Shown: positions 12,001 to 61,730, counted from the stretch's first letter. The stretch is DNA of 64,000 bases from a bacterium (GCA_021162205.1 JAGGZE010000100.1:587-64586), one strand, 5' to 3'. The notes: generated from the sequence alone by a model not told the origin. Numbers and translations: made by a program.

Positions 12001-15000
12001 TTTGCACAAGTTTTCGATGCCTATGGAAATCATATCAATGGTGGGCAAAATGTCGGTTTCCAAACTACAATGGGAAGATTTAGCCCGATTTCTGCGATGA
12101 CCGATACCACTGGCACTGCGAGAGCATATATTCAATCGGGACTCGATATTGGAACAGCGACTATAACTATCACCTGCGGTTCGGCTATGGGATTTCTCGG
12201 TGTCGAGATGATACAGACAACGGTTGCAGGACTTCTTCTAACTCCAGATAAACTGGTTCTTGTCGCAGATGGCACCGATGTTGCGACTATTACTGCAACC
12301 GTATTTGCACCGGGCGGCACTCGTGTTTCCAATAATACTATCGTTCATTTTTATGCCGATACCGATTGGGTGCATCTACTTCCAGAGAATACATACACCG
12401 ACAGCGGTGAAGCCAGTATCACTGTTCGAGCCGATACGGTTGCCACGAGTTCGATTAGAATTCATGCCTATGCGACGACTACAGCGGGTGATACATCCGA
12501 TACCGCATCGCTGAATTTTAGAATCGACCCGGGTCCTGCGGCAAGAATGAATATTACCGTTTCAGATTCTGCTATTCCCGCCGATGGTGCGACAGGTTCG
12601 CTTATCGATGTCTTTGTTTATGATAGATATTCAAATCCGATTATCGCGGGTTCTACGGTTAGGTTTAATACGACACTGGGAGTTATAACCACGGTTAGTT
12701 TCACCGATACTCTCGGGCATTCATCCGCACTGCTGACATCGGGAACAGAAACCGGAAATGCCGTTGTTACTATAACAGCGGGAGATATAACAGGATTTAC
12801 TCAGGTTAGTTTTTATGAATTAACAACCGATGAACTTATAATGACAATTAATCCGATACAGTTGCCCGCCGATGGTGTCAGTTCTGCGACTATAACAGTT
12901 CACGCTTACGATTCGCTCGGTTTTCCATCGTCGGATGGCAGCAGAGTAGCATTCTACCAGCACGATACGACAAGCGGTTTCATTAAGGGAATTATTGCTC
13001 CGCATATCGCCTATACTGTCGATGGAATAGTTACAGTTACATTGACAGCTCCTGTCAAAAAGGGTTGGGGGAGAATCTACGCCTATGCGGATACTGTGGG
13101 TTCCGCTGTCGTCGATTCTTTCGATGTTCAATATCTCGCGGGAGAACCTGCGATAATACAATTCGATACCACTAATTTCAGTAATTTCGAGGCGAGTGGA
13201 ATGTATTTCGATGTGCCTGTTATTATTGAAGATGCTTATGGAAACCCAGTCGATGTTGGAACCGAGGTTACATTCACAACTACACGCGGGGATATTCAAA
13301 CACCAGCGGTTGTATCGAATGACACAGGTGGAACTGTAACATATATTTCCAGCCACGAGACAGGACCTGCTGTTATAACAGCTCATTCTGGAAGTGCTGT
13401 CGCTACGGCTCACTGCAATTTCAATGAAATCGAGGGCGATTGGATGATGATTATCGCCAATCCATATATTATCACAGCGGATGGCGCATCTCATTCGACT
13501 ATCACGGCAACTCTTATGGATACGAGTGGCGGAATATTTATTCCTGTATCCGATGGTGTTCCTGTTCAATTTATGGTTATTGGACCCGGTATTTTATCTT
13601 CTTCCATTGCATTCACATCTGGAGGACAGGCATCGGTTACATTAACCGCTGGAACGATTGCCGATACTACACAAATTTTCGCATTAGCAATATCGGCATC
13701 GGGAGATACACTTTCAGATACAGTGAATGTATTTTTACAGCCCGGTCCTGCATCGATTGTGGAATTTATAGATTCATTCTTTCATCCTCTTCCCGCAAAT
13801 GGTGCCGACACCGAACAGGTATGGATAAAAGTTATGGATGCTTTTGGAAATGGTGTGATTCGTGGGACACCTGTTTCATTCAGCACAAATCTCGGGGATA
13901 TTACACCCAATAGCGCCACCGACGACAGTGGTTTTGCTTGGGCGATATTGACTGCGAGTTCTACTCCCGGTGTTGCCACTATTTCAGCGAGTTGTGGGGG
14001 TGCAGCAGGTTATGCGACAATCGCTATGCAGGAATTGACCGCCGATTCGATTATTTTAGCTGTGTATCCTCGCGAAATAATCGCCGATGGCGTATCGACA
14101 AGTGAACTGACCTCGGTTGTATTTCATGGCGACTTGCCTGTTTCCGATGGCACAATCGTTAGATTTTCGGCATCGCGAGGAATTACTCGTCCAGCTATCG
14201 CTTACACATCGTCCGGTGTTGCCACCTCGCAACTCGTATCATCTGTTAGTCCGGATACTGTATTTATAGCTGCTATCAGTGGAACGGTTGCAGATACCGA
14301 TACTGTTTACTTAGTCCCTGGACCTCCTACAAGGATGACTATCGAATCCACACCCGATTCTGTTCTTGTCGCAAATGGAAACGATACACTTCGAGTAAAT
14401 GTGCAGGTTTTCGACGATTATAGTAACCCTGTGGGTTCGGGTCAATTAGTTACATTCGGTTCTACAATCGGGATAATTACGCCGAATGCTTATACCGATT
14501 CAGTCGGACAGGCATCGGTGATTCTTTCGAGCGAATATGAAGCTGGATGGGCACAGATAACGGGGACTTGCGGAAGTGCTACTGCAAGTATGCTAATTCA
14601 ATTTATTCCCGATTCGATTGGACAGGTTATTTTGGCTGTCAATCCAATCGAACTTACCGCCGATGGAGGTTCCACTGCCGATGTAACTGTAACTGTGCTC
14701 GATATAAACGACCATCCAATTGCGGATGGCACACCCGTTCTATTCAGTGGATTAAATCTCGGGCTTATAAGCCCACCTGTTGTAACGACAACCGATGGCT
14801 CGGCATCGGCTACTCTTACAAGTTTCACGCTTATCGGTATGGATACTATTATAGCGAGTTGTGGTTCGGTAGTGGACTCGGTGAATTTATCGTTTGTGGC
14901 TGGACCACCTGCGAATATTGTGTTAATTCCCAATAATAACTTTCTTATTTCCGATGGCACGGATACAACGACTGTTACCGCTACTGTTACCGATGCAGCG

Positions 15001-17877
15001 GGCAATCCTGTCGAGGATGGCACTGTGGTGCATTTCAGCGTCGACCCATCGGATATGGGAGTCGTTTGGTCGGTAGCTGTTACCGCCGATACAGGAAGAT
15101 GTAAAACGCTATTCCAGGCCGGAACACAACCTGGAATTGTAGCGATTCACGCGACCGCTGGCGGCGCCGATGGAACATGTGTTATCGAACTTGTGCCTCC
15201 AGATGTAGCTTCTATCGAACTTTCGGTTGCAGACCATTATCTTCCCGGCGATGGTATATCCAGCACACAAGTCACTGCGATTGTATTCGATACGCTCGGA
15301 CTTCCAGCACCGAATGGCACAGGGGTTCATTTCGCTGTTACGGATAGTTCTGTCCCTGCAAATCTATTCCCTGCCTGGGCACAGACAATCGATGGTATAG
15401 CCAATGTTCAGTTAATCGCTCCGACTGATATTGGAGTTTGCTCGGTATATGCTTATATCGATACAGGAGACACCCCTTGGGTTATGAGCGATACGGAATT
15501 AGTTTATTTCGAAGGCGGCGACCCACAAGCTATCGTATTCAATCCGCCGACATTTACACTTCCAGCCGATGGTGCCACCGATACAGTCGGCACACTCACT
15601 GTAATCGATAGATATGGCAACCCGATAGGTGCAAGACCTGTTAGTATGACATTGGATTTAGGCAGAATCAGCCCAGCAACAGTTGTTACCGATACATCGG
15701 GTCGTGGAGTATTTCAGATAACATCTTCGATACATATCGGCGATGGTATGATTCAAGCTACAGCGGACCCTGCCATAGGATATATGAATATTCATTATAC
15801 CGCTGTTCCAATCGATACGATACTCGTTTTCGCTACACCATCGAGATTGCCAGCCGATGGAACGAGCCAATCTACTGTTACAGCGATTGTGATGGATTCG
15901 CTGGGAAGATTGTGTTCGGATGGAATGAGTGTGTATTTCTATACCGATAACGGATTTATTACTCCGCACGATACGACTATGGGAGGGCAAGCTCACGCTA
16001 CACTGACGGCGGTGGATACTGTTTGCACTGCTACGGTTACAGTTGTATGCCAAACCGAAAGCGCCTATGTAAATGTGATTTTCACTGCGGGGGTGCCAGA
16101 TACGATTATAGTTACATTCTCACAAGATATGGATACTGTTGGAAGCGGAACGATGGATTCGATTTCTGGCTTGGTTCTCGATACGCTTGGAAATAATGTG
16201 GGTGCTGGTGCGCTCGTCGAACTATGGCTTTCCACAGATATAGCAGGTTCGGATACTTGCGGTAGTGGCGGCGAACCGTGTAGTCTCGGAACAATCGGCG
16301 ATATTACCATCCTGACAGATTCCAATGGTCAATTTAGCACACAGTTCACACCTGGAACAAAAGCTGGTATTGTTTGGATTCAGGCGAGGTCTGGTAGTGC
16401 GATAGGAAAAGATTATATGATTCTCGAACCCGAGATTGCGCATACTGAAAGTCTCGATGTCGATAGGAATCATATATATGTGCGTGGGTCGGGAAATATC
16501 GACCAGGCAATTTTGACCGCATATATATTGGATAGATATAGCAATCCTGTGAAAGACAGCACGAAAATTATTTTCTGGTGCACGAATTATCCGGGTGGAG
16601 CAGACCCGAATCGTCAGCCATCTATCGAACCGGAACATCCAACATCGGGGCAACTTTATTCCGATACGATTTACACTCTTAACGGGCGAGGCAATGTTAC
16701 GGTTCGTGCGGGGAAAGCATCCGGTGTTGTGGTTGTTCGAGCGGAATTATTCGATGGCTCGGGACTAATTTCCGAATCGCCGCGTATCTCTATTTCCAGC
16801 GGACTGCCATACAATATCTCGATGTCGGTAAGAGATTGTAATATTGCAGGATGGCTTGTCGATGGTCTTCAGGATACTGTAATGGCTATTGTTTCGGATT
16901 CTATGGATAATCCCTGTCCGAATACTGCTGTATATTTGACCTGCGACGAAGGTATTGTTACGGGTTCTGCTGTTACCGATAGCAATGGTATCGCTTATGG
17001 AATATGGTTCTCCGCCGACCCGAGAGATACGAACGGCTATCCGACAGCAGGGCGCATTATGGTCGAGGGAAGAACTCGCGGCGATTCATCGGCAACTTGC
17101 CATGGCGATTCCGGCTGGGTTTGCGACAGCACGATGTTCTATAATTCAGGACCCGCCGAATCGGTATATGTAACAGTTTCACCGAACTCTATCAATGCCG
17201 ATGGTGTCAGCACCGCCGATATTGTTGCGTTGGTATTCGACCACAATAGAAATCCTGTTGTCGATAGCTCGAATGTTCATCTTTTGACTAATCTCGGTTC
17301 GGTTACCGACCCGATTACAACTTATAACGAATGTTTCGGCAGTCGCGCCGATGGCGTATATACCAGCACCACTCTCGACCAGGATGATTACTGCGCAGAC
17401 CCGCGTGGTAGAACTGCAACAATAAGCGCTCTCGCCGGTTTCGCCGCAGGTTCCGATAATGTGGATTTGATGAATTCAGACCCGAGTCCAGAAAATTCCG
17501 GTGTAACTGCACCGGGTTCGGTTCCAGTAGGTGGTGATTTCAGCGCTGTGGTAACCGTAAAGGATATTTGGGGTAATCCACTTTGCGGCGAATCCGTAAC
17601 ATTAATTAGCGCAGTCGGTGCGACTGTTACTGGAAGTCCTGGAGTTACAAATAATTCGGGTATCGTTTCATTCAATGTAATAGCTGCTACCGATACTGTC
17701 GATATAAACGATGTGCTGACAGCAAGGTTCGGTTTGTGCGCCGTTTGGACAGAAGTTACATATGCCTCGGGCAAGGGAGTATTTACACCGGATACTTCGA
17801 GTTCCGCCGGAAGTGATAATCGAACACCGATGTATATCGAGTATCGGGATAGTTTGATAAATAAACCGAGTGAATAG
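1..17877 (+). CDS. Giant secreted adhesin-like protein made of tandem bacterial Ig-like (Big_1/invasin-type) domains. It is 5'-partial: frame 1 is open from nt 1 to the first ATG at 115.
   Basis: A 5,920-aa ORF with no stop in frame between nt 1 and 115. It contains dozens of ~95-aa repeats with the motif 'ADG.S...TA.V.D.(Y/F)GNPV..GT.V.F.T.LG'. Confidence 0.8.
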   Translation, partial: VYFTIVADTISATSTTDKDTLWRASQGGVSPSTPGTACMDFFLPSNSVGLTVVVTVVGYDEYSKYRTFTVITGTEYNILLMQLDSNSVTVGSGQVGITVWVKDVFGQPVQNEFVCFTSLNPTLGVMADSCLFSDNAGMCTTSFIIGTKSGIDTICATDHAGISVCGHIILNPAVANTESLFADAYHIYRCGSGLYDQTDIIAQIYDRYWNPVRNGTSVIFSIDTFTFMDSCSNNPSDSCYPCPGLEPEHPTLGRLYSDTVYTTTDSTGSYATVKLKAGYLSGVVRLRCDVLDGSGTVAWSSLLNISSGQPHYISLSARPPGSSIWEAGDPMQNYYSSPIDYAMWGACTQDSMPLEIMAVVSDEFNNPIPSTSVWFTATSGVVGGWPGSPSIAINTDSTGIGTTYWFSSDRRELDSCFVMIKAYSAETSVADSLFFYLRYLDGTLCCNPCDLVNIISATAIPDTIEGSGTDSSTIAVQLVYSSLPLTNYQVQFRTRHGWLSSNIDTTNESGIATVYYSAINPSPSTFADTITAIAGDSCAIAYIPVYVSPAAVALNITLIADDYNPTVGGQEVELTGMIRDIGGVPITIPLPISWSIMTDTLIAPPEVGDFVSYSVYSDTLGLFSAVFETGNLAGVITINAIVAGSGTASVNLNILPATVILAADNYNPEVGGVVVHLNGSITDYLGDPVRTPAPVNWSLILPDSSIAPIEMGHLDSLSMASDTNGTFKGVYISGTTNGEVGVVAEVAGIGSDTVWLNVQSGPPAGITLNISPDTDTVGGLVPDTISGCVVDGYGNPVEFSGVVNLWLAYDAAGDSVCYPCSYGSIEPTGVIPDSTGCFTALFSPGVTSGLIWIHALADSAHGVTSITLIPQLARTESLAVSLNHIRTCGNAPYQSEVTTYVFDQFGNAVADLTPIIFAIDTFSYMDACTTWDDSCLSPCPRLIPSSSVLGPLFSDTIYTIDGLARATLKAGSVSGVVRVAAYVMDGSGEVAYSQMINISSGDVQEISISARKRSPIDTLTGHLCISVPPYTCEYCSWTYDWWSGDPDIDGYAPQLNMPSGWVLDGDTCNSLWIQVRISVSDTFGNPIPSATIHLSCDEGVIGGYPYGPVDSVALTDTNGLAYTYWYAADPRVDGQVWIKAHSSDISVGDSLWFYLLDTLGIPPYDTVEQEVIYVVPDTVFGDGLSTVDILCRVMRNGNPLPNYPVYFYADTGMIGSPVFSDSIGYARTTYYSGLNHNPGVITTDSITMIAGIDTAYFPIFLLPIDPVRPYVAYILFDLQPDNISVGDSAVLSGLILDGLGYPVRLPVPVYFALHQDSFPAPLNMGIISPGYTYTSSDAATYGQFSTLFRSGSQAGNLWLLMTAIQGADTVIDSVMIHITGSSPQTISVVPTSAYLEADGRSNMQVVATVQDMYGNPVEGVTVDFSTTLGQMNPATAITNENGQASTILISGTETGTAVITATCEGRVGTAEVEFVSATVHFIILDVEPSRLPADGISSAAVTADIRDQYGQPISDGTIVSYRCLTPTHIPIGNIDTIGVTSTGISTVNLTAPTTATSAWVFATAMSHIESVYVEFTAGDVYSLEISSLPDTIPADGLSQSDISVRAYDQYGNPVESGNRIDYAATLGELLFDHSFTDDTGFTQTVLTSARTTGSSQITASSGDVEAITVVYFSPITAQSIVVMSDSVHLCADGISSTNIRALVFDSLGGAVPDGTPVSFSTDLGILIPGYAYTDSGEVVVLLRAPTTPGIATIIADAGDGIIGTTYVEFIAGSPASISMSVSPNILPADGDTTAIISGTVYDENANPIGAGFEVQFQTTLGSVDLLTYTDSVGSFSIIYHAGITPGTAIIGATCESAHGQAYIDIIPTDAEELYITIDPNELTADSRSTAVVSGRVTNTLGNPVADGTPVRLEIHCADTLGCDAFGEVMPITVPTDSGDFNATFIAGTRVGRVWIIASVGTVIDSAFVNLKPGEVDSIAVDANPNIISADSFSYSLIAANLFDVYGNAVGSGVDVNFSTTNGTILPEHTTTNSSGYASALLISSRMPGVARVQVSSGSAIGEDTVVFSESGAGLVIVTISPSQIIADGVSFAIVTAQITDTLGNPISDGIPVMFSEIVDTATGADTLGVLVPSIAYTSDGEATVQFRARTQKGIATVRACIDSLHCGEGIVEFIAGNGDSIEIYSADSMLPADGVSFTEITAIVYDRYGNLVEGGRSVLFATTSGGVAPATAPTNSAGQAKAILTSSDNPGIAWVTSQCEDGYATIPVEFGLAEPVFLAVNANPRRIAADGISTSAITARLINAVGEPVVEGTMIIFHAFDSLGNPFGDIDTLATTSAGQAQVTLTAPTQIGVAYVTAAYYGDIDTLIDTTTVTYTPGPPAGIDIFVAPETLYANDTVTADIRIVVVDLYGNPVEPGQNISISSDNGTIFPTTAYTGDTVVCTYYPGSVAGRATINVSCGSIVNSAVIELLTPSIAYLVVFADSSSLVANGSSVSEIHIIAQDALGHPVADNTPVYLTTTAGLVFPGIAYTNGGEAVVSLRSGTVAPDTAVIIVSAGVEAETVYVPLIPGPPAMIDIIPNSTSLFADGEDTTTVRAYVTDAHGNWVNEGTNVRFSTSLGTIDSLTLTTAVAETTGFASARFRAGIIPGSALITVTSGTAISQTIIGLIPTDVGNIYLTVDPNELIADSRSTAVVSGRVTNTLGNPITDGTPVGLEVHCADTLGCNGFGEIVPITVHTDSGNFDAEFIAGTRVGRIWVVASVDTIADSAFVDLIPGEPDSVALTIVPNTLPADSFSNATVTANLYDRFGNPVESGVTVNFSTSLGEIDPTNTTTNSSGRATTHLTSGRTPGIALVRASSGSAAGEDTAIFTQTGAQLVVVTIDPAQIVADGINSAIVSAQISDSLGNPVSDGMPVMFVQIVDTAAGEDTLGLLVPSIGFTDSGVATIHFRAGTETGRATIQACVDTAHCGIGFIDLIAGTADSIILVSADTVLPADGVSMTTMSADIYDRYGNSVEGGRSVAFNTTLGQIYPSTAPTSSGGQANAILTSSADPGLAWITAQCEDAYASVMVDFGMMPPVFLSINASPRRITADGISTSTITAHLINSVGAPVPDGTMIFFHSVDSTGAPFGDIDTIATTINGDASVILTAETQIGVAYVSAIWYNATDTLTDTVTVTFTPGAVAMVQVTADRETLYANDTLTARVTIVVTDVFGNMVEPGQAVAISVDNGDIFPTTGYTGDTIICTYYPGSVAGRAVITAECGGFVGSEVIELLTQIIANLVIYSDSAFLIANGTSTTGIHIVAQDSLGHPVADNTPVYVTTTTGITFPGVTYTSGGEAAVTLRSSTHSPDTAIVIGTAGSASDTISIVFIAGPPALINLVPARNVLWADGEDTTMVRAYITDIHGNWVDEGEIVGFSTNLGIVDSFDVTHAVVGTTGYAQTMFRSGIEPGAALVTANCGDATGITRITLDPTNVGEIGIFASPDIIVADGHQTSDITGFVRNSLGNPISDGTQVRLRVSPDSLGNISPVSVYTDSGNFSATFTAATVVGSVWVVMNVGGDTDSVAIELAPGQPHIITMNPIIGTIYADSSSVDTIAVVVTDRYSNRVHGGVSINFTTTLGEIFPVSNETNSAGSTYVFIRSGYNVGVARVVGRIDSARGECSVIIQTTQPNIIALSVDPHTLMADGFSTTLLTATVLDTFGHPISDGTPVTFSVDDSTYGLIFPGIAYTTSGQATSTFRAAVQKGHPVLKAETSPTNYDSVVITLTAGNPASVVMTAIPGTLSANGMDQSDIDVQVFDEWLNPVDAGQSVSFNSTLGQILFPTLLTDDSGHTNTVLQAGSVPGNCQVSAQCSGVYDVINVTFSRSGVNTIILTANPPELVVDGISSSAITAQIFDANGSPVTDNTKIYFWSSDPLAGTVISPRFTSGGQVVTEFIAGTSIGTGQVWIFSSDTDTVVAAHPIDSVRIGLKPGQPAYINVWTDTSHTPHDTLYADGNDGIWVFAQVFDAYGNHINGGQNVGFQTTMGRFSPISAMTDTTGTARAYIQSGLDIGTATITITCGSAMGFLGVEMIQTTVAGLLLTPDKLVLVADGTDVATITATVFAPGGTRVSNNTIVHFYADTDWVHLLPENTYTDSGEASITVRADTVATSSIRIHAYATTTAGDTSDTASLNFRIDPGPAARMNITVSDSAIPADGATGSLIDVFVYDRYSNPIIAGSTVRFNTTLGVITTVSFTDTLGHSSALLTSGTETGNAVVTITAGDITGFTQVSFYELTTDELIMTINPIQLPADGVSSATITVHAYDSLGFPSSDGSRVAFYQHDTTSGFIKGIIAPHIAYTVDGIVTVTLTAPVKKGWGRIYAYADTVGSAVVDSFDVQYLAGEPAIIQFDTTNFSNFEASGMYFDVPVIIEDAYGNPVDVGTEVTFTTTRGDIQTPAVVSNDTGGTVTYISSHETGPAVITAHSGSAVATAHCNFNEIEGDWMMIIANPYIITADGASHSTITATLMDTSGGIFIPVSDGVPVQFMVIGPGILSSSIAFTSGGQASVTLTAGTIADTTQIFALAISASGDTLSDTVNVFLQPGPASIVEFIDSFFHPLPANGADTEQVWIKVMDAFGNGVIRGTPVSFSTNLGDITPNSATDDSGFAWAILTASSTPGVATISASCGGAAGYATIAMQELTADSIILAVYPREIIADGVSTSELTSVVFHGDLPVSDGTIVRFSASRGITRPAIAYTSSGVATSQLVSSVSPDTVFIAAISGTVADTDTVYLVPGPPTRMTIESTPDSVLVANGNDTLRVNVQVFDDYSNPVGSGQLVTFGSTIGIITPNAYTDSVGQASVILSSEYEAGWAQITGTCGSATASMLIQFIPDSIGQVILAVNPIELTADGGSTADVTVTVLDINDHPIADGTPVLFSGLNLGLISPPVVTTTDGSASATLTSFTLIGMDTIIASCGSVVDSVNLSFVAGPPANIVLIPNNNFLISDGTDTTTVTATVTDAAGNPVEDGTVVHFSVDPSDMGVVWSVAVTADTGRCKTLFQAGTQPGIVAIHATAGGADGTCVIELVPPDVASIELSVADHYLPGDGISSTQVTAIVFDTLGLPAPNGTGVHFAVTDSSVPANLFPAWAQTIDGIANVQLIAPTDIGVCSVYAYIDTGDTPWVMSDTELVYFEGGDPQAIVFNPPTFTLPADGATDTVGTLTVIDRYGNPIGARPVSMTLDLGRISPATVVTDTSGRGVFQITSSIHIGDGMIQATADPAIGYMNIHYTAVPIDTILVFATPSRLPADGTSQSTVTAIVMDSLGRLCSDGMSVYFYTDNGFITPHDTTMGGQAHATLTAVDTVCTATVTVVCQTESAYVNVIFTAGVPDTIIVTFSQDMDTVGSGTMDSISGLVLDTLGNNVGAGALVELWLSTDIAGSDTCGSGGEPCSLGTIGDITILTDSNGQFSTQFTPGTKAGIVWIQARSGSAIGKDYMILEPEIAHTESLDVDRNHIYVRGSGNIDQAILTAYILDRYSNPVKDSTKIIFWCTNYPGGADPNRQPSIEPEHPTSGQLYSDTIYTLNGRGNVTVRAGKASGVVVVRAELFDGSGLISESPRISISSGLPYNISMSVRDCNIAGWLVDGLQDTVMAIVSDSMDNPCPNTAVYLTCDEGIVTGSAVTDSNGIAYGIWFSADPRDTNGYPTAGRIMVEGRTRGDSSATCHGDSGWVCDSTMFYNSGPAESVYVTVSPNSINADGVSTADIVALVFDHNRNPVVDSSNVHLLTNLGSVTDPITTYNECFGSRADGVYTSTTLDQDDYCADPRGRTATISALAGFAAGSDNVDLMNSDPSPENSGVTAPGSVPVGGDFSAVVTVKDIWGNPLCGESVTLISAVGATVTGSPGVTNNSGIVSFNVIAATDTVDINDVLTARFGLCAVWTEVTYASGKGVFTPDTSSSAGSDNRTPMYIEYRDSLINKPSE
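5611..10398 (+). repeat. Intragenic tandem segmental duplication in the giant gene: two ~2.4-kb units (about 800 aa, 8 Ig-like domains each), 5611-8016 and 8017-10398, then a diverged partial third copy from ~10399.
   Basis: Both units begin with '(T/V)DPNEL(T/I)ADSRSTAVVSGRVTNTLGNP' and stay colinear for about 800 aa. DNA identity is roughly 75-80% by eye. Confidence 0.85.
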
Positions 17878-31722: not shown

Positions 31723-31741
31723 ACACCCTTCGGGTGTTTTT
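31723..31741 (+). terminator. Intrinsic terminator-like hairpin (acaccc-ttcg-ggtgt followed by TTTTT) after surA. It also forms the first module of the mosaic repeat.
   Basis: Perfect 6-bp GC-rich stem followed by a T-run, 14 nt after the stop codon. Confidence 0.6.
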
Positions 31742-32066
31742 AGTGCGTTGCGTTTCTTCCGACAAAGTCGAAATTCATTGCAACGCCATCGTTATCAAAG
31801 TTTCCGAACCCATTAAAAAGAGCCGTAGGCTTCGCCTGTTTTTATTGCGTTGATTTTTTCTGAACAGGGGATATAGTTGCCCATTGCCCGATAACGAATT
31901 GTAGGGGCGAACGGCGTTCGCCCAATAGAATAAGGGCGTATTCGATATGCTCCTACACCGTGTTTTTAATTGGTTGAAATGTTATTTAATTGAGCTGGCA
32001 TTGCAGGGAATTGTTCCGCTTTTGTGGAACAAGGAAAGCAATGCGAAGAAAACAGGCGAACGCCTG
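31723..32066. repeat. Mosaic intergenic repeat locus A: one forward unit (31723-31851) and one inverted unit (about 31905-32066), tail-to-tail. The inverted unit abuts the tRNA-Ser 3' end.
   Basis: Shares with loci B-D the modules hairpin+T-run, outer stem gcgttgc/gcaacgc enclosing a short palindrome, and an AT-rich box '..attaaataacatttcaacc.attaaaaa' followed by a GC hairpin. In the inverted unit the hairpin caggcgttcgcctg+TTTT lies directly 3' of tRNA-Ser. Confidence 0.75.
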
Positions 32067-41598: not shown

Positions 41599-43158
41599 TT
41601 ATTTGTTATTCTGTGCAAATTCGGTCAATCGGCAGAAATCGTCGACATCTAATTGTTCGGCGCGGGTATTTTCATCTATACAGAGCGAAGCAAAGATTTT
41701 GTGCCAATCTATATCGTCGCGAAAATTGCGAAGATTCGATAAAAGTTTTTTTCTTCTATGCGCAAATGAAACTCTAACCAATCGAGAGAATATTTTGCCA
41801 TCGATATTCGGAAAAATAGGTTGTTTGCGGGTTGTAAGCCGAACCGCTGTCGATATTATTTTCGGTGCAGGATTAAAACTTTTAGGACTTATATCGAAAA
41901 GTTTTTCGATATCGAAATATCTGCTTAGTATCACCGATGGTATCCCGTAGGTTTTGTTGCCCGAACTTGCGCAAATCCGCTGTGCAACTTCCTTCTGCAT
42001 AATCAACAATGCACGATTTATCGCTCGATAATTTTGTGCAAACCAAAACAATATCGGTGTTGTTATCGAATATGGGATATTTCCGATAAGTGTGAGTGGT
42101 TCATCGTAATAATCTCGAATTCTGTCCAGTTCGAGAGCGAGTATATCCTGCTGGACGACAAATCCTTTATCGGATGAAATTTTTTCGCTTAGTGCCTTTG
42201 CAAAGAAATCATCGAGTTCTACCGCTATGGTTTTGTCGAAATGCTCGACCAATTTTTCTGTGATAATGCCTTTGCCGGGACCGATTTCGATTGCGATTTT
42301 GCCATCGCCGAAAAAGTTTGAAAGTTTTTGAACAATTCCTACATTGATTAAAAAATTCTGCCCCAGTGTTTTTTTTGTATGGTGAAGATATGGCGATGGA
42401 AATCGAAACAATTTCGCCGCATTTTTTGTGGTCTGAAAAGAAAGTCGCTCGAGTGGAATATTTTTAATTTCAGCGATTTTCTGTGCGATTAATGGAATAT
42501 TTGCCGGCTCGTTGCGTTTCCCGCGATATGGATGCGGTGCGAGATATGGACAATCGGTTTCGAGTAATATTCTATTGGGAGGCGTTTGCTCGATTAGATT
42601 TTGTCGTTTGAAATTTTTAAATGTAATCGGTCCACCGAACCCGATGTAAAAATTCTTTTCCAATGCCCAGTCTAAAAAAATTTCATCGCCAGAAAATGCG
42701 TGAAGCACTCCGCGAAAATACCCGCATTTTTCCAAAATCTCCCGCGCTTTTTCTTGAGCATCTCGAATGTGAATTATCATTGGAAGACCGAGTTGTTTCG
42801 CCAGTTCGATTTGCGCTTCAAAGAATTTAAATTGATTATTCGGCGATGAATGTTCACGATAAAAATCCAATCCGATTTCGCCGATTGCCACAACTTTGGG
42901 GTGCCTCGCGAGTTTGATAATCTCATCTAACCAATTATCATTGCAATTGTCGATTTCATTGGGATGAACACCGACCGCAGACCATATTTCTGGATAATGC
43001 TCGGCAATTTCGATTCCGCGTTTGGAACTCGCCAAATCGACACCGACATCTATAATTCTGCTGACATCGGAGTCGAATGCTCGATGAATAACTTTCTCCC
43101 TATCATCATCGAACTGCTTGAAATCGAGATGTGAATGTGTATCGCAAAATTTTTGCAT
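41599..43158 (-). CDS. Fusion protein: TatD-family metal-dependent hydrolase (N-terminal) plus 16S rRNA (adenine1518/1519-N6)-dimethyltransferase RsmA/KsgA (C-terminal).
   Basis: Single uninterrupted ORF. The TatD motifs 'DTHSHLD', 'AIGEIGLDFY', 'PMIIHIRDA', 'LETDCPYLAP' are followed directly by the RsmA motifs 'LGQNFLIN', 'AIEIGPGKGIITEKL', 'IGNIPYSITTPI'. The start is chosen at MQKF (43158); the ORF is open to 43260. Confidence 0.7.
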   Translation of the reverse strand: MQKFCDTHSHLDFKQFDDDREKVIHRAFDSDVSRIIDVGVDLASSKRGIEIAEHYPEIWSAVGVHPNEIDNCNDNWLDEIIKLARHPKVVAIGEIGLDFYREHSSPNNQFKFFEAQIELAKQLGLPMIIHIRDAQEKAREILEKCGYFRGVLHAFSGDEIFLDWALEKNFYIGFGGPITFKNFKRQNLIEQTPPNRILLETDCPYLAPHPYRGKRNEPANIPLIAQKIAEIKNIPLERLSFQTTKNAAKLFRFPSPYLHHTKKTLGQNFLINVGIVQKLSNFFGDGKIAIEIGPGKGIITEKLVEHFDKTIAVELDDFFAKALSEKISSDKGFVVQQDILALELDRIRDYYDEPLTLIGNIPYSITTPILFWFAQNYRAINRALLIMQKEVAQRICASSGNKTYGIPSVILSRYFDIEKLFDISPKSFNPAPKIISTAVRLTTRKQPIFPNIDGKIFSRLVRVSFAHRRKKLLSNLRNFRDDIDWHKIFASLCIDENTRAEQLDVDDFCRLTEFAQNNK

Positions 43159-43303
43159 ATTACTAAATTTTTTACAGGGAGAGAGGCATTGCCTCTTCTT
43201 ATTCCACAAATTTATTTTATAATCAATTTTCAAGTTATACTTGACTTTTTTTAATAGCAAATTATTTTATCAACTTAAATTTGAAAACAGGAGGAATTTT
43301 TTA

Positions 43304-50713: not shown

Positions 50714-50827
50714 CCTGCTTCGGGTGTTTTTTGTGCGTTGCTTTCCTGCCCCGACAAGTCGGGACATTCCCTGCAACGCCTGATTAGTCAAATAACATTT
50801 AAACAATTAAAAAGAACCGAAGGTTCT
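50706..50827. repeat. Mosaic intergenic repeat locus B (single forward unit) immediately after the mazG stop.
   Basis: Hairpin+T-run 'gcagg-tttaa-cctgc ttcgggtgtttttt', outer stem gcgttgc...gcaacgc enclosing the palindrome cccgac-aa-gtcggg, the AT box 'ctgattagtcaaataacatttaaacaattaaaaag', and the hairpin agaacc-gaa-ggttct. Confidence 0.75.
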
Positions 50828-51727: not shown

Positions 51728-54169
51728 TTATTTCACAAGAATAGCCCGCTTTGTCGCTGTGAATTCCGGATGAATAATTCTGCAGAAATAAGTTCCAGCG
51801 GAAACGGTTTTACCGTATTTATCGGTGCCATCCCAAACGACTGTATGATAGCCAGCTGAAGCGCTTTCGTCCCATAAAGTTTTCACTTTATGCCCTGAAA
51901 TATCGACTATTTCGACAGTAACAAAATCGCCATGCCCCGATGGGATACCGAACTTGATTGTAGCGGTAGCATTGAATGGGTTCGGCACAACATTCGACAG
52001 GAAGAAATCACCGGGAGTAAGTCCATTATTCGATGTTACCTGTGAAGTTACAGGATAGACGAACAGTTCCATATCGATAGGTTTCTGAACATTTTGCAAA
52101 ATAACTTCATTCTGCGTTCGAAGATTTACTTCATCGTATCCAGTGATTTTCAGCAGAACGGCATATTCAGAAGGAATATTCTCGAGATTCCAGAACAGGC
52201 GAGCATCCTTACCGATTTTTCCGCCGGGGTCGAGCATTACCTGCCACATATAAACATCTCTTCTTTCATTCGTCATATATGTTTCATAGTTTTTCCCATC
52301 GTGAATATAATACAATCTGAAAGGATTCGGTACATCGGGTGGATTCATAATATCTGTCGGCTCGAGAATTTTCATTTCAGAATTGCTATAAAAACCTGCA
52401 TCGTTGAAATAGTCGCCTTCATCACCCATATCGCAGGAAAGCCGAACCGACCATCTTTCAGCAGCAGGAGCTCTCGCAAGCAAAGCAGGAGCAGCCCTAT
52501 CGGTGTACATAATTAAATGAAGCTCATCGGTGGTATATTGTATTATCCAAAACCCTTCCCATTCATAAATATACTTGTCGGCATCGAAAACATTCACGGC
52601 TAATGGAACATATTGCCAAGTCCCCGCTATTTTTCGATATACCTGAATTGCACCGCCTATCCAACCATGTGATACATCAGCAGCTTCACTTATTGGGATA
52701 CTTGGACCACCCAATGTAACATTTTTAATTCGCCATTCTGAAACATCGACCTTGATTGTATCACCTGGTTGAATAGGGTCATGGTCGGGTTTGAAAAATG
52801 GATTAGCCATCATATTGTATTGAGTGTAAGCATTTGTGCCGTCATACTGGTAAAGTGCGACCTCGAAACTATCGGTAGTATCAGCCATCACTCCATAGAC
52901 ATCGAAAGGAATCGAATCACAGTGAGTTTGATTGCCCCAGAAACCGAGACCGAGAGCAAATCTATCGGGATTATTGATATCACCAGGTCCCTGGTAACGC
53001 TTATATCCGCCGACACCGACATTAGGATAATATCTCATAACTCGATACCAGTTTTCCCAGGTTCCGCAATTAGAATCACTTCCAGCACAACTTGTCGGGA
53101 AATCATCGTATAGCACAATATCCTGCTCACCATAATCCACTATTCCATCGAAACCACCCGCCGCACAACAACCGTGTAGTTCAGCAAAGTTTTTATATGC
53201 GGTTGTATCCTCGCGAGGATATAGTGGAACGCCGAATAATGTGTATCTTCGCCAGAGAACTGTTTGAGCATAAGCGGCATTATATGGCTTTTGGTAGGTT
53301 ATAGTTTTGGTTATACTTTTGTCCAAGCCCCCACTTTCGCCGAAAACATGGTCATCGATAGTTATCCATCCAGCGGTAGTGGTATCTGAAAATTCCAATT
53401 TGCTGCCATATGAACCATTACCAGCATCGCACCAAGCATCATAATTATCATTGTGTTCATAAATATCATTATCGGTTTCTCCTGTCCCAAATTGACGATA
53501 GTTCACAAAATCCACTTTACCACCATCATAAGCACCTACAGAACCATCTGGTGGGTCGAATTCCACATATACCGAGCAACGATATTCCTCCCAGAATTTG
53601 ACCGTAACACTTTCAGGAACGGTTTGAGTTCCAGATATTACAATTCCTTCTGCTGTGTCGCCTCTTGCCCATCTATGGAAATTAGGGTCGCAAGTCTCTC
53701 TGGGACCACAGGGGGAAGCTGCGCTGGTAAAAGTTGCTATGGAATCATACCAATAATTTTTCTCACTTGCTTGCACCGTATCCACCCAAAGATAAATGGA
53801 CCAATCATCCGGACCGATAACTGTATCTTTCCATACACCTCTGTTCAAATAATGAAGCCCGATTTTCAATGAATCATCCCATAATTTAATAGAGTCAGCA
53901 TCATTATTCGCGGCTCGCTGGACATCTTTGGCGAAAAAACGCACATAGAACATTTTTTCACCGTGATAAAATCCCTGTTGGTCGGAGTAAGTTCCACCCG
54001 AAACTGTCGTAGCCGCAGTCTGTCCTGTTGCACTGCCCCATAATTCATAACCCCCGCCTGTTGCACCGACCGGACCACCACTGCCATAATAGGATTCTCT
54101 TAACTCGTATTGCCCCCAAATGGCAGTGATAAATAAAAGCGCTACGATAATTATACTCAATTTATTCAT
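51728..54169 (-). CDS. Secreted protein with a C-terminal T9SS type A sorting domain (Por_Secre_tail-like).
   Basis: Signal peptide MNKLSIIIVALLFITAIWGQ after a GGAGGA RBS. The C-terminus 'VVPNPFNATATIKFGIPSGHGDFVTVEIVDISGHKVKTLWDESASAGYHTVVWDGTDKYGKTVSAGTYFCRII...KRAILVK' matches the TIGR04183 pattern. Confidence 0.7.
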   Translation of the reverse strand: MNKLSIIIVALLFITAIWGQYELRESYYGSGGPVGATGGGYELWGSATGQTAATTVSGGTYSDQQGFYHGEKMFYVRFFAKDVQRAANNDADSIKLWDDSLKIGLHYLNRGVWKDTVIGPDDWSIYLWVDTVQASEKNYWYDSIATFTSAASPCGPRETCDPNFHRWARGDTAEGIVISGTQTVPESVTVKFWEEYRCSVYVEFDPPDGSVGAYDGGKVDFVNYRQFGTGETDNDIYEHNDNYDAWCDAGNGSYGSKLEFSDTTTAGWITIDDHVFGESGGLDKSITKTITYQKPYNAAYAQTVLWRRYTLFGVPLYPREDTTAYKNFAELHGCCAAGGFDGIVDYGEQDIVLYDDFPTSCAGSDSNCGTWENWYRVMRYYPNVGVGGYKRYQGPGDINNPDRFALGLGFWGNQTHCDSIPFDVYGVMADTTDSFEVALYQYDGTNAYTQYNMMANPFFKPDHDPIQPGDTIKVDVSEWRIKNVTLGGPSIPISEAADVSHGWIGGAIQVYRKIAGTWQYVPLAVNVFDADKYIYEWEGFWIIQYTTDELHLIMYTDRAAPALLARAPAAERWSVRLSCDMGDEGDYFNDAGFYSNSEMKILEPTDIMNPPDVPNPFRLYYIHDGKNYETYMTNERRDVYMWQVMLDPGGKIGKDARLFWNLENIPSEYAVLLKITGYDEVNLRTQNEVILQNVQKPIDMELFVYPVTSQVTSNNGLTPGDFFLSNVVPNPFNATATIKFGIPSGHGDFVTVEIVDISGHKVKTLWDESASAGYHTVVWDGTDKYGKTVSAGTYFCRIIHPEFTATKRAILVK

Positions 54170-54269
54170 TAGTTCCTCCTCGGATAATATTATCACCTAT
54201 ATTCATTATATAAATAAAATATGAAAAGTCAACAGCTAATAACAAATAAATTTAAAATAGTATTTATTT

Positions 54270-54821
54270 CTACTTTTCAGACTTTTCAAGCGATACGCCA
54301 ATGTTTGCAAGCCCATCTGCAATTTTGTTGTATTTCCTTAAAATATGAACAAATTTCACGGTTCGGAATATTTTAGGATGTGTGACATCTCCAAGATGTG
54401 TGATATCTCCAAGATGTGTGACATCTCCAAGATGTGCGACATCTCCAAATTGTAAAAGTTTATGTGCTTTTGCGGCAAGTTGAGCAAGAGTAGGATTTTT
54501 GAGCCGATATTCGCCTCGCATCTGTTTAACGAGCAATTCACTATCCGAACGGATTTCAATATTATGTTCTGTGGGATGTGTGAGAACTGGAAGATGTGTG
54601 ACATCTGCAAGATGTATAAGTTTATTCACCTGTTCGAGGGCGAGTATTAAAGCTTTGTATTCGGCGACATTGTTCGTTGCAATCCCTATCGATTTCGACA
54701 TTCTAATCAATTCATCACCAGATTCTGTCGTGATGAAAACACCGATACCAGCAGGACCTGGATTTCCTTTCGATGCACCATCTATATAACATATTAAATT
54801 CATATATATTTTTATTTTCAA
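54270..54821 (-). CDS. rnhA: Ribonuclease HI carrying two in-frame insertions of 6-aa (GDVTHL) tandem repeats.
   Basis: 'CYIDGASKGNPGPAGIGVFI', '...ATNNVAEYKALILAL', 'IEIRSDSELLVKQMRGEY', 'YNKIADGLAN' cover the RNase H catalytic residues. The true start is probably MNLICY at 54803. Confidence 0.7.
   Translation of the reverse strand: MKIKIYMNLICYIDGASKGNPGPAGIGVFITTESGDELIRMSKSIGIATNNVAEYKALILALEQVNKLIHLADVTHLPVLTHPTEHNIEIRSDSELLVKQMRGEYRLKNPTLAQLAAKAHKLLQFGDVAHLGDVTHLGDITHLGDVTHPKIFRTVKFVHILRKYNKIADGLANIGVSLEKSEK
54377..54448. repeat. 4 x 18-bp perfect or near-perfect tandem repeat (gatgtgtgacatctccaa), each unit containing the palindrome agatgt-gtg-acatct. It is in-frame inside rnhA and encodes (GDVTHL)4.
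   Basis: Direct reading of 54377-54448. A second degenerate array of the same unit lies at 54575-54616 (encoding ADVTHL/PVLTHP). Confidence 0.9.
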
Positions 54822-54905: not shown

Positions 54906-55643
54906 TCAATCATCGAGTGTTTCAAGCTCGACAATAATTCTTCCACAATTTTCGCAAATCGTAAGTTTCCCTGCTCGAATTTCCTGAATCCTCTGTGGTG
55001 GTAACGCCTGACGACAACCGCCACAAGCTCTATCGACTATCGAAACAACAGCAACACCCTGTTTCCCTCGCCGTATTTGACGATACTTATTCAAAAGGGG
55101 TTTAGAAATTTTCGATGCAATTTTATCTCTTTCAAGCTGAATTTTAACTATTATGTCATCGATTTCGACAGAATTTTTCTCTATCTCTTTGATTCGACTT
55201 TTGTTTTTAGCGACTGTATCTTTCAAATTGGTTTCGAGGTCGGATACTTCCTTTTCGAGACTACTTTGTTCATCCAAAAGAACAATAGATTTTTGTTCCG
55301 CATCGTCGATTTTTTCTTGATGAGTTTGTATCTCGAGTTGAACAGCATCGTATTCTTTATTCGTCGATACATTAGGTAATTTTTCATTAGAACCTTTTAA
55401 TTTTTCTTCCTCACTTTCTAATTCCAATTCGAGAAAATCGATTTCTTTTTTCACCTCGATAAGTCTATCGCTTTTTTCCTTATAATTTTTCTTGAGCTGT
55501 TCGATTCCCGTTTTCAACTGTTTGAGCAAATCGGGAAAAAAGGATTTACGCATATCGAGTTCGAGCAATTTGCTGTCATATTCCTGAACTCTAAGTAATA
55601 ATTTCAACTGCTCCTTCATAGTGAGTTTATTTGGTTGAACCAT
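54906..55643 (-). CDS. Zinc-ribbon domain protein (COG1579-like coiled coil plus C4 zinc ribbon), the usual neighbour of nif3.
   Basis: Long heptad-rich coiled coil followed by 'CGGCRQALPPQ...CENCGRI'. The start at 55643 follows a GGAGGA RBS. Confidence 0.65.
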   Translation of the reverse strand: MVQPNKLTMKEQLKLLLRVQEYDSKLLELDMRKSFFPDLLKQLKTGIEQLKKNYKEKSDRLIEVKKEIDFLELELESEEEKLKGSNEKLPNVSTNKEYDAVQLEIQTHQEKIDDAEQKSIVLLDEQSSLEKEVSDLETNLKDTVAKNKSRIKEIEKNSVEIDDIIVKIQLERDKIASKISKPLLNKYRQIRRGKQGVAVVSIVDRACGGCRQALPPQRIQEIRAGKLTICENCGRIIVELETLDD

Positions 55644-55692
55644 TAGGTCTCCTCTCTGTTTTTTAAATTTATAACAAATCGAACACAATCTT

Positions 55693-56811
55693 TTAATTAT
55701 CGACTGTCTTAAAAATCGGCTCCTCGACATCCGATATTTTAACCTCCCCGTGTTTTCCATATTTATCGAAAAATTTCAGTAAAATATCCCTAATAGTCGG
55801 AAGAATTATCCATTCGGTTCCAAAATGTCCTGCCACAACCGAGGCGATTTCAGCTTCTTTCAAAGCCAATGCGGAATGGTAATTAAGTTCCCCGACGATA
55901 AATAAATCGACCGCAGAATCGATTACATATCGCACAAATGAATCGCCACTGCCGCCGAGAACCGCGACTTTTCTAATAAATTTTTCACCATCGCCAGATA
56001 TACGGACAGCATCGGTGGGTAATTTATCCATACAAAGTCGAGCGACATCGGAGACACTCATCATTTTCGCCAATGTCCCGATTAAGCCGAATCCGCCATT
56101 ACTTTTAACATTTTCCAATGGATAAATATCATAAGCGGGTTCTTCATAAGGATGAAATGTTTTCATCGAGCGAATTGTTTCATTTAAAAGATGAGAGGGA
56201 ACAATTGTCTCGAATTTTATTTCATCGACCTTTTCGAGTTTCCCGATTTCGCCGATATATGGATTTGTTCCTTTACCCGGTTCAAATGTTCCCTCACCAG
56301 CACTGGAAAAACTGCATCGACTATATTTTCCAATCGAACCGATACCTAAATCGAGCATCTGCCGACGAAACCGCTCAAAATTTGTTTCAGGAACAAATAC
56401 CGCTATTTTATATAATTTTCCGGAATTTTTCGTGGATAACGGTCTATCTATTTTTATGCCGAGAATACCTGCTAATGCAACAGATACACCGAATGGAGCG
56501 AAATCGAGATTGGTGTGAGCAGAATAAATTGCGAGGTCGTTTTGTATCGCTCTATATATTTTCCCCGATAAACTGTCTGTTGCGATAATTCTTGCACCGT
56601 TCAAATTCCGAAGTGGATGATGTGTGAAAAGTAAATCGTATCTACCCTCGATAGCCTCGTTTATGACCTCATCGGATATATCGAGAGCGATAAGCACCTT
56701 ATCGACAGCTCGTTTAGGGTCGCCGCAAAAAAGCCCTACTTCATCGCCAGGATAGACCCAATCTTGCGGACAAATCGATTCGAATTCTTTTATCAATTCT
56801 TCAAGTCTCAT
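55693..56811 (-). CDS. Nif3-like dinuclear metal-centre protein (YqfO/YbgI family).
   Basis: 'LIALDISDEVINEAIEGRYDLLFTHHP' and 'AVLGGSGDSF...VGELNYHSALALKEAEIASVVAGHFGTE' are typical NIF3 N- and C-terminal halves flanking a PII-like insert. Confidence 0.75.
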   Translation of the reverse strand: MRLEELIKEFESICPQDWVYPGDEVGLFCGDPKRAVDKVLIALDISDEVINEAIEGRYDLLFTHHPLRNLNGARIIATDSLSGKIYRAIQNDLAIYSAHTNLDFAPFGVSVALAGILGIKIDRPLSTKNSGKLYKIAVFVPETNFERFRRQMLDLGIGSIGKYSRCSFSSAGEGTFEPGKGTNPYIGEIGKLEKVDEIKFETIVPSHLLNETIRSMKTFHPYEEPAYDIYPLENVKSNGGFGLIGTLAKMMSVSDVARLCMDKLPTDAVRISGDGEKFIRKVAVLGGSGDSFVRYVIDSAVDLFIVGELNYHSALALKEAEIASVVAGHFGTEWIILPTIRDILLKFFDKYGKHGEVKISDVEEPIFKTVDN

Positions 56812-56876
56812 AATAAAAAAAAGCACACTGCATTAGAACAGTGCACTCTAATATATAATAGCCCTTCTCGCCATAA

Positions 56877-57087: not shown

Positions 57088-57308
57088 TCCACCCGTTCGG
57101 GTGTTTTTATCGTGCAACTTTCCTTTCGCTTCGCTCAATTCCCTGTTGCACCCATTCGGGTGTTTTCTTCGCGTTGCGTTTCTGATTGCAAAGCAATCAT
57201 TCCTTACAACGCCTGCTCAATCAAAATAACTTTTCTCTAATTAAAAAGAACCGAATGGCTCAAAAGAACCGAGATGCTGGTTTGAACAAGGGAGCATGCT
57301 CCCTTGTT
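57088..57308. repeat. Mosaic intergenic repeat locus C: 1.5 units between tRNA-Met and the mutS2 stop.
   Basis: The hairpin cacccgttcgggtg+TTTTT; the stem pairs gtgcaac/gttgcac and gcgttgc/gcaacgc (the latter enclosing gattgc-aaa-gcaatc); the AT box 'tgctcaatcaaaataactttt...ttaaaaag'; and a terminal 9-bp palindrome caagggagc-atg-gctcccttg. Confidence 0.75.
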
Positions 57309-61280: not shown

Positions 61281-61730
61281 CAACACCCTTTGGGTGTTTT
61301 CTTCGCATTGCGTTCCTTGCCGATAAAATCGACAATTCCCTGCAATGCCTGATTAATAAATAACATTTCAACCATTAAAAAGAACCGCAGGCATTCGCCT
61401 GTTTTTATTGTGCAACTTTTCTTACCGATAGAATCGGTAATTCCTTGTTGCACCTGATTAATCAAAATTTCTCGGCGACAATGAATTTCACTCTTGTGAA
61501 AAAAAAGTCGCCCCTAAAAAGAGCCGAAGGGCTCTTGCAACGCCAGATTGATAAATAACCATATTAAAATGTCTGGGCGACAATGAATTGCTGATTCCAT
61601 CAGCAAGAAAAGTCGCCGTTAAAAAGAACGAAGGTTCTTTCTAACGACCTTTGGTCGTTAGAAATACTAAAGTTTTCTGGAAGGGGTTCGGGGGAACTTC
61701 TTTTGAAAAAGAAGTTCCCCCGAAAAAAAA
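61281..61730. repeat. Mosaic intergenic repeat locus D: about 3.5 tandem units filling the whole 550-bp spacer between two minus-strand genes.
   Basis: Units with outer stems gcattgc/gcaatgc and gtgcaac/gttgcac enclosing the palindromes cgat-aaa-atcg and accgat-aga-atcggt. Repeated AT boxes 'ctgattaataaataacatttcaaccattaaaaag'. Hairpins caggc-attc-gcctg+TTTTT, agagcc-gaa-gggctct, agaac-gaa-ggttct, ggcgac...gtcgcc. A terminal 14-bp-stem hairpin ggggaacttctttt-gaaa-aagaagttcccc. Confidence 0.8.

Follow-up and report, generated by a model that had tools for sequence, protein, structure and literature searches.

Two in-frame arrays of one 18-bp hairpin unit in a bacterial RNase HI gene, probably a young minisatellite

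In-frame variable-number tandem repeats (VNTRs) are known from the pe/ppe genes of Mycobacterium tuberculosis and, as small variable segments, from surface-protein genes of Staphylococcus aureus and ftsK of Escherichia coli, and strand slippage or short-homology recombination is accepted as their mechanism (PMC12817950; PMC2884548). Rickettsia palindromic elements (RPEs) are single elements of ~100–150 bp with a conserved peptide that form dispersed families, with 44 insertions in unrelated genes of R. conorii (PMC10969869). We describe a locus with likenesses to both in a 64,000-nucleotide stretch of bacterial DNA (GCA_021162205.1, JAGGZE010000100.1:587-64586), and refer to this whole stretch as the window. 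The gene for ribonuclease HI (RNase HI; rnhA) in the window contains two arrays of one 18-bp palindromic unit. We consider it probable that these arrays are a young, lineage-specific, in-frame minisatellite in a functional RNase HI gene, produced by slippage together with one intragenic copying event.

The rnhA arrays agree with intragenic VNTRs in that a short unit, within the range of roughly 10–100 bp that defines such repeats, is repeated head to tail, its length is a multiple of three, the open reading frame (ORF) is preserved, and copy number differs between close strains, with one variant allele seen. They depart from the described VNTRs in that the host, a cytoplasmic nuclease of 15 kDa, is neither a surface protein nor rich in repeats, and in that the unit is itself a hairpin, found in two separate loops of one small domain, apparently by intragenic copying. 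With RPEs they share the presence of palindromic DNA in frame in housekeeping genes at fold-compatible positions (PMC10969869). However, the rnhA unit is far smaller at 18 bp, is tandem, is confined to one gene in the available sequence, with no dispersal within the 64-kb window, and belongs to a Zixibacteria-like organism.

Two further classes of small repeat invite comparison. The small dispersed repeats (SDRs) of heterocystous cyanobacteria (Elhai et al. 2008) are described as ~20-bp units that occur in tandem in variable number, form hairpins in some cases, may have inserted into conserved sequences, and are defined by dispersal over many loci (PMC2884548; PMC3116915). SDRs would be the closest mobile analogue in unit size and variable tandem number, but the rnhA unit has no second locus in the 64 kb or in the protein database, and host flank is common to its two sites. 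REP and REPIN sequences are extragenic, palindromic, present in hundreds of copies, and linked to RAYT transposases (PMC3116915). They resemble the rnhA repeat as short palindromic repeats that at times form tandem clusters, whereas the rnhA repeat is intragenic and local.

Tandem Repeats Finder, run on the whole window, detected exactly two period-18 arrays, both inside rnhA. The gene and its arrays are as follows.

54270-54803, minus strand: RNase HI gene (rnhA), intact ORF of 177 codons, 534 bp, protein start MNLICYIDGAS
54377-54448, minus strand: C-terminal array (site 2), 4.0 copies of 18 bp (72 bp), 94% matches, score 130; unit on the coding strand TTGGAGATGTC(A/G)CACATC
54575-54615, minus strand: N-terminal array (site 1), period 18, 2.3 copies, 86% matches, score 61
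54575-54610, minus strand: units of site 1, TTGCAGATGTCACACATC (1 mismatch) and TTCCAGTTCTCACACATC (4 mismatches)

The 18-bp unit reads TTGGAGATGTCACACATC in the coding direction. It spans six codons, and the ORF (177 aa) stays open across both arrays, reading HLADVTHLPVLTHP and FGDVAHLGDVTHLGDITHLGDVTHP. Site 2 encodes FGDVAH-LGDVTH-LGDITH-LGDVTH and site 1 encodes LADVTH-LPVLTH, and both arrays end in ...ACACATCC (Thr-His-Pro). An earlier note on this DNA, made from the sequence alone, had proposed two in-frame arrays of one unit with hexapeptide translations, and these were recovered here. Its further statement that both arrays are multiples of 18 bp holds for site 2 (72 bp) but not for site 1, where the array is ~40–42 bp long and comparison with an insert-free orthologue gives a net insertion of 39 bp (13 codons), divisible by 3 but not by 18. 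Scanning the window with GATGTGTGACATCTCCAA at ≤3 mismatches gave five matches, all within rnhA (shuffles expect 0.03), and ≤4 mismatches gave six, again every one in rnhA. The other 63.5 kb of the window contained no unit even at ≤4 mismatches.

The host gene is otherwise an ordinary rnhA. Its product is identical to GenBank MCD6595184.1 and scores above the Pfam gathering thresholds for RVT_3 (2.3e-14, 53.8 bits, cut-off 21.6) and RNase_H (1.2e-9, 39 bits, cut-off 25.8). A TTG start at 54821 is probably not in use, the ATG that gives MNLICYIDGAS being used instead. The closest solved structure is 3u3g (LC11-RNase H1, E 1e-24), and other near solved relatives are 4h8k (LC11-RNase H1), 3hst (the RNase H domain of M. 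tuberculosis Rv2228c), 4e19 (Halobacterium RNase H1), and Sulfolobus tokodaii RNase HI. An AlphaFold (AF2) model built on a 15-sequence alignment had a predicted template modeling score (pTM) of 0.80 and a predicted local distance difference test score (pLDDT) above 90 in the core. Foldseek matched this model to 3u3g with E 1e-14 and TM 0.88 (normalized to target length), and its best matches were the protrusion-less enzymes 3u3g, 4e19, 3hst, and 3aly. Between strand beta4 and the site-2 insert the model shows only helices H89-95 and H104-119, with no basic protrusion or helix alphaC. The protein is thus a type 1 RNase H of the LC11, Sto-RNase H1, and Rv2228c N-domain type, without the basic protrusion. 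It shares the fold, the DEDD active site, and a ~140-residue core with those enzymes, but has 37 extra residues in two loops.

The catalytic motifs that the earlier note recognized are kept, with all four catalytic carboxylates forming invariant columns in the 15-sequence alignment.

54780-54782, minus strand: codon of catalytic Asp8 (DGAS motif), invariant column D8
54660-54662, minus strand: codon of catalytic Glu48 (NNVAEY motif), invariant column E48
54543-54545, minus strand: codon of catalytic Asp87 (RSDSELL motif, C-terminal end of beta4), invariant column D87
54315-54317, minus strand: codon of catalytic Asp163 (NKIADGLAN motif, helix alphaE), invariant column D163

For 125 core codons compared between the window gene and its insert-free orthologue, the ratio of nonsynonymous to synonymous substitution rates (dN/dS) was 0.076, at a saturated dS of ~1.5, which indicates that rnhA is kept under strong purifying selection. 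As to the organism, the window encodes type IX secretion (T9SS) genes and a polynucleotide phosphorylase with 72% identity to a Zixibacteria protein and ~56% identity to KSB1 and Calditrichota proteins, from which we infer an uncultured host within the FCB group, close to Zixibacteria.

Close relatives found by protein search provided three kinds of comparator: an insert-free gene (protein P0003, locus L002), a gene with two units at site 2 (P0002, L001), and genes with four units (L003 and L004). The insert-free protein (138 aa; cluster-mate RKZ26782.1) has 77% amino-acid identity to the window protein over aligned positions and has neither insertion. At the DNA level, site 2 differs from L002 by exactly 72 bp, or four units of 18 bp, placed between CAAT and CTAAAA, and the comparison revealed no target-site duplication and no terminal repeats at this site. 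The hallmarks of a miniature inverted-repeat transposable element (MITE), terminal inverted repeats and a target-site duplication, are therefore absent, since site 2 consists of exactly four units without duplicated flank. When RnhA orthologues were aligned, lineage-specificity, which the earlier note had left as a matter to check, was borne out: the sister lacks both insertions, and the site-2 insertion is unique to this lineage among 118 homologues.

Copy number at site 2 differs among close strains. L001 is 98.6% identical to the window over 4.4 kb and has two units at site 2, not four. Its first unit carries neither the G variant of unit 1 nor the A variant of unit 3, as would be expected from a single 36-bp slippage event between units 1 and 3, judging from these variants. 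The L001 array also has two further substitutions in 36 bp against 0.2 expected from the flanks (P = 0.017). In L003 (an ENA sample) and L004 (a JGI sample), flanks are 99.1% and 99.3% identical to the window and rnhA is identical to the window gene, with four units, and the sharing of this allele rules out an artefact of one assembly. The site-1 array does not differ among the four strains (window, L001, L003, and L004). A 147-bp indel between L001 and the window was only apparent and corresponds to an N-gap in the L001 scaffold. We also note that codon 9 of rnhA in the two-unit strain (L001:1047) changes Gly9 to Cys directly after catalytic Asp8 (DGAS to DCAS). The position is conserved across at least 90% of homologues, and the change could stem from a sequencing error or from relaxed constraint in that strain.

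These comparisons also make it very improbable that the arrays are an assembly or library artefact derived from adapter sequence, or that the two-unit allele is a collapsed repeat. An 8-mer of the unit, AGATGTGT/ACACATCT, also occurs in the mosaic end of Tn5 (Nextera), and the site-1 string CTTATACATCT is similar to the adapter sequence CTTATACACATCT. Short-read assemblers may also mis-size tandem repeats, and L001 is a scaffold with an N-gap elsewhere. However, two further assemblies (ENA and JGI), from different samples or strains, have the same 534-bp gene as the window, the arrays lie in the interior of long contigs, keep the frame, and coincide exactly with fold loops, and the CTT of the adapter-like string is a native Leu codon present in the insert-free orthologue. 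The substitutions in L001 are absent from every unit of the four-unit allele and would not be created by collapse, and an array of 72 bp is below typical read length.

How one unit came to occupy two sites is addressed by the sequence just upstream of each array, in the direction of transcription.

54449-54463, minus strand: 15-nt upstream flank of site 2, ATAAACTTTTACAAT, native, matching the orthologous position in L002 at 15 of 18 positions
54611-54625, minus strand: 15-nt upstream flank of site 1, ATAAACTTATACATC, paralogous to the site-2 flank

The two flanks are identical at 12 of 15 positions, in register, and at 28 of 33 positions without gaps when the first unit is added. In the insert-free gene, the best match to the site-1 flank of the window is the site-2 flank, AATGAACTTATACAAT (13/16), and not its own orthologous position; a match this good anywhere in the insert-free gene was equalled by 31 of 5000 shuffles. 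The site-1 flank shares a derived AAA with site 2 of the window and the ancestral AAT and ATA with site 2 of the insert-free gene. These character states suggest that it was copied from site 2 after GAA changed to AAA there and before AAT changed to CAT and ATA to TTA, so that copying likely ran from site 2 to site 1. Because the homology between the arrays takes in host flank, we interpret the event as the copying of a chromosomal tract; transposition would not carry flank with it.

The same evidence bears on whether the unit is instead a very small mobile or dispersed repeat, SDR-like or a miniature analogue of RPEs, that landed twice independently in frame and occupies many other loci, which we regard as quite unlikely. 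Such an origin would fit the occurrence of one unit at two separate sites of a single gene, a palindromic structure found in only 1.1% of random 18-mers, and a site-2 insertion that is a clean whole number of units. The window, through which alone this genome is seen, also contains another dispersed hairpin-bearing family of ~110 bp (listed below), so repeat-spreading activity exists in the organism. Against it stand the 15 nt of host flank that both sites share and that the insert-free orthologue has as native sequence at site 2, the lack of target-site duplication and terminal repeats, and the absence of copies beyond rnhA in 63.5 kb of the window at ≤4 mismatches.

Searches beyond the window pointed the same way. 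About 2 kb past its right-hand end, on contigs found via the last gene, held no unit. Exact 18-mer scans returned 12 solitary matches and no array in 596 Gb of species-representative genomes (4 of the 12 being one conserved Planctomycetota locus), 33 solitary matches in metagenome contigs, none with a neighboring unit at ≤3 mismatches, and 2 solitary matches and no array in viral contigs, all at the level of chance. Since the genome and metagenome collections do not include this organism, these scans show only that the array is not widespread. We also searched 5.8 billion protein clusters with five tandem copies of each open-frame translation of the unit (GDVTHL, LEMSHI, WRCHTS, MCDISK, and CVTSPR), and no array in another protein was significant in any open frame; the sole significant match was P0001, the window RnhA. 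Two weaker hits were set aside: P0121 (E = 0.08), a phage gp138-like spike with GDxxH beta-helix repeats whose architecture is unrelated, and P0122, which was noise. Derivation of the unit from the native insert-free gene was likewise not supported, as its best match there was 10/18, a level reached by all shuffles. Given that chance-level match, the FGDV at the array start beside the native FGEV of L002 is an anecdote only.

Of the two readings offered in the earlier note, likeness to an RPE is thus not supported: the unit is 18 bp, has no terminal structure or target-site duplication, has no copy beyond rnhA in the 64-kb window and no array in any other protein of the 5.8 billion clusters, and shares host flank between its sites. 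The other, a slippage-prone minisatellite that leaves the enzyme intact, gains support from the contrast of two and four units, the insert-free sister, the invariant catalytic residues, and the low core dN/dS. That the unit is an SDR-like mobile repeat outside the cyanobacteria, inserting and amplifying in frame in essential genes of a Zixibacteria-related lineage, seems distinctly improbable. If it were true, very small mobile repeats would be extended to a new phylum, and there would be a second system after RPEs in which palindromic DNA builds protein loops.

Each unit has the form AGATGT-nnn-ACATCT, a 6-bp stem with a 3-nt loop (AGATGT-CAC-ACATCT on the coding strand), which is the palindrome expected in 1.1% of random 18-mers of equal base composition. 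As DNA, a single unit hairpin is weak (about -3.5 kcal/mol), and the folds of the arrays are only slightly more stable than those of shuffled sequence (z -1.6 to -2.1). With z values no stronger than these, mRNA or DNA structure was not retained as a function of the arrays. The palindrome may be the trace of a snap-back or template-switch origin, or plainly a replication-pausing sequence. In the minimum-free-energy fold of the mRNA (54360-54640, minus strand), site-1 units pair with site-2 units in a helix spanning 160 nt, with a z of only -2.1 and an ensemble frequency of 0.0001.

The AF2 model and the alignment place both insertions in loops between core elements, where they had been expected from the sequence. 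Site 1 (residues ~62-78) lies between helix alphaA (44-69) and strand beta4 (80-86), and site 2 (residues 120-145) lies between helix alphaD (104-119) and strand beta5 (146-153), so that strands 80-86 and 146-153 start right behind the two insertions. The RNase H fold is a five-stranded mixed sheet flanked by helices, in which beta4 and beta5 run parallel side by side and bear catalytic carboxylates at their C-terminal ends; in the model, D87 immediately follows beta4. The insertions would therefore enter at the N-terminal ends, on the side of the sheet opposite the active site, which would explain why the enzyme tolerates them. The two inserted loops are predicted to be neighbors in space. 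Modeled confidence differs between them: the site-2 insert has pLDDT of ~40 (residues 122-141) and is predicted to be disordered, and the site-1 insert has pLDDT of 59-78 and in part prolongs helix alphaA.

Of the 120 best homologues, 118 were used to measure loop lengths. The spacing from E48 to the Asp of beta4 is 24 residues in 89 of 118 and reaches 48, with the length of the site-1 loop varying in about one-quarter, which identifies site 1 as a naturally variable loop. Unrelated insertions of 15–24 residues occur at the alphaA–beta4 loop in P0009 (a Pro/Gly-rich stretch), P0011, P0025, P0045, and P0089, and this loop is a general insertion hot spot in the RNase H family. The spacing from the Asp of beta4 to the Asp of alphaE is 49–52 residues in 115 of 118 homologues, the exceptions being the window protein (76), the two-unit allele (64), and a third protein that is internally duplicated. 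The constancy of this connection indicates that the site-2 insertion is recent and lineage-specific and not normal loop variation. Among the RNase H homologues, P0010 has an internal duplication of ~70 residues.

The position of the loops raises the question of whether they are kept because they are useful, with adjacent His/Asp-rich hexapeptides forming a metal-binding or protein-docking surface and repeat number tuning its function, an idea that we consider unlikely. Entry at the N-terminal ends of adjacent strands, with predicted proximity in space, would suit such a surface, as would the one His and one Asp encoded by each unit. The site-1 array is identical in four strains and the four-unit allele in three, and the site-2 connection is not otherwise lengthened in homologues. 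However, the unit variants seen (A/T, I/V, H>R, and T>R) are non-synonymous in all four cases, which gives no indication of selection on the peptide, and the AF2 structure of the site-2 insert is not a confident one. Other proteins showed no homologous repeat, the weak P0121 match being unrelated in architecture, the insertion is absent from the sister lineage and from 115 of 118 homologues, and an allele with only two units exists. The encoded peptide may thus be neutral.

The reading that we prefer, a minisatellite that arose by slippage and was copied once within rnhA, would run as follows. After the split from the insert-free sister, an 18-bp unit with a 6-3-6 hairpin would have arisen at the alphaD–beta5 connection (site 2) and been amplified there through replication slippage. 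With a unit length of 18 bp, divisible by 3, and a frame free of stop codons, each gain or loss would alter a surface loop by six residues (GDVTHL). A tract of ~15 nt of site-2 flank with at least two units would then have been copied 162 bp upstream into the alphaA–beta4 loop (site 1), by ectopic gene conversion or by template switching, with the native AAACTT (Lys-Leu) at both helix ends as the anchor. The site-1 copy would since have decayed and become fixed, and the site-2 array would still be turning over (four versus two units).

Several points weigh against this account. The flank statistics are only moderate (~0.01) and were noticed post hoc, and the AACTT part of the flank identity is native at both sites. 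Copy-number variation is known from one variant assembly, L001. The origin of the unit is unexplained by the insert-free gene (10/18 in any phase), and a role of the hairpin in slippage is conjecture, given the weak hairpins and folding z of -1.6 to -2.1. Dispersed solo or intergenic copies may exist elsewhere in a genome of which the window alone is seen, and the protein search was blind to arrays of one or two units and to intergenic copies; even P0002 was not returned. Retained RNase H activity is likewise a prediction from the conserved sequence.

Upstream of rnhA is a conserved gene cluster of NIF3, zinc-ribbon protein, and RNase H, in the gene order of Rv2230c-Rv2229c-Rv2228c in M. tuberculosis. 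The identity of L004 to the window, 99.3% between 58957 and 53916, falls abruptly to 70–77% at the latter position (L004:5042), downstream of rnhA. The drop falls inside a surface-protein gene and continues beyond it, and marks a recombination breakpoint that exchanges most of a secreted protein between strains.

54906-56826, minus strand: NIF3/DUF34 gene and zinc-ribbon (CT398/Zn_ribbon_9) gene, upstream of rnhA; Pfam matches on L003 and L004, and ORFs in the window
51728-54196, minus strand: FlgD_ig/T9SS-type surface protein, 822 aa, with the identity drop at ~53916

The dispersed intergenic family of ~110 bp has at least six full copies in the 64 kb, often as tandem pairs and beside tRNA genes, and its sequence is unrelated to the 18-bp unit.

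50714-50826, 61284-61394, 61389-61499, 31723-31832, and 57150-57261, plus strand: full copies of the ~110-bp family
31961-32065, minus strand: full copy of the ~110-bp family
57091-57151 and 31829-31867: fragments of the ~110-bp family, with overlapping weak matches on both strands at 61456-61625

Copies begin with a small GC hairpin and T-run, resembling a terminator, and have a 7-bp stem that encloses a second hairpin. Compensatory changes between copies were seen in 9 of 13 predicted pairs, and no Rfam family matched at gathering score. This family could be a REPIN- or MITE-like element or a small RNA family.

Elsewhere in the window, an ORF of 553 aa joins a TatD/YchF-family DNase (residues 39-286) to a 16S rRNA dimethyltransferase RsmA/KsgA (294-547), an apparent gene fusion. 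A nearby pair of tRNA genes, for Ile(GAT) and Ala(TGC), consists of the usual occupants of the 16S–23S spacer but stands in a window with no rRNA gene, as judged by the lack of an Rfam rRNA match. A 5920-aa ORF with at least 13 diverged repeat copies (family D1), spaced at ~290–600 bp or multiples, is probably an adhesin with Ig-like domains, and two more large ORFs of 1797 and 1485 aa lie near it.

41599-43260, minus strand: TatD/YchF–RsmA/KsgA ORF, 553 aa
41316-41535, minus strand: tRNA-Ile(GAT) and tRNA-Ala(TGC) pair
115-17877, plus strand: ORF of 5920 aa with D1 repeats

The locus reveals no new mechanism or system, and the event is ordinary. It is the place that is unusual: a compact cytoplasmic nuclease as host, a site-2 loop of otherwise invariant length among homologues, and one unit in two loops of one domain. 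Interest in the unit would rise if it proves to be dispersed in the genome. The array is a possible strain-typing marker in this uncultured lineage. On the preferred reading, it would be a natural example of how a compact conserved enzyme gains surface loops, through a hairpin unit, slippage, and duplication of the array to a second loop. With an insert-free sister and a shorter allele as comparators, it may serve as a test case for the tolerance of RNase H to loop insertions and for hairpin-assisted slippage.

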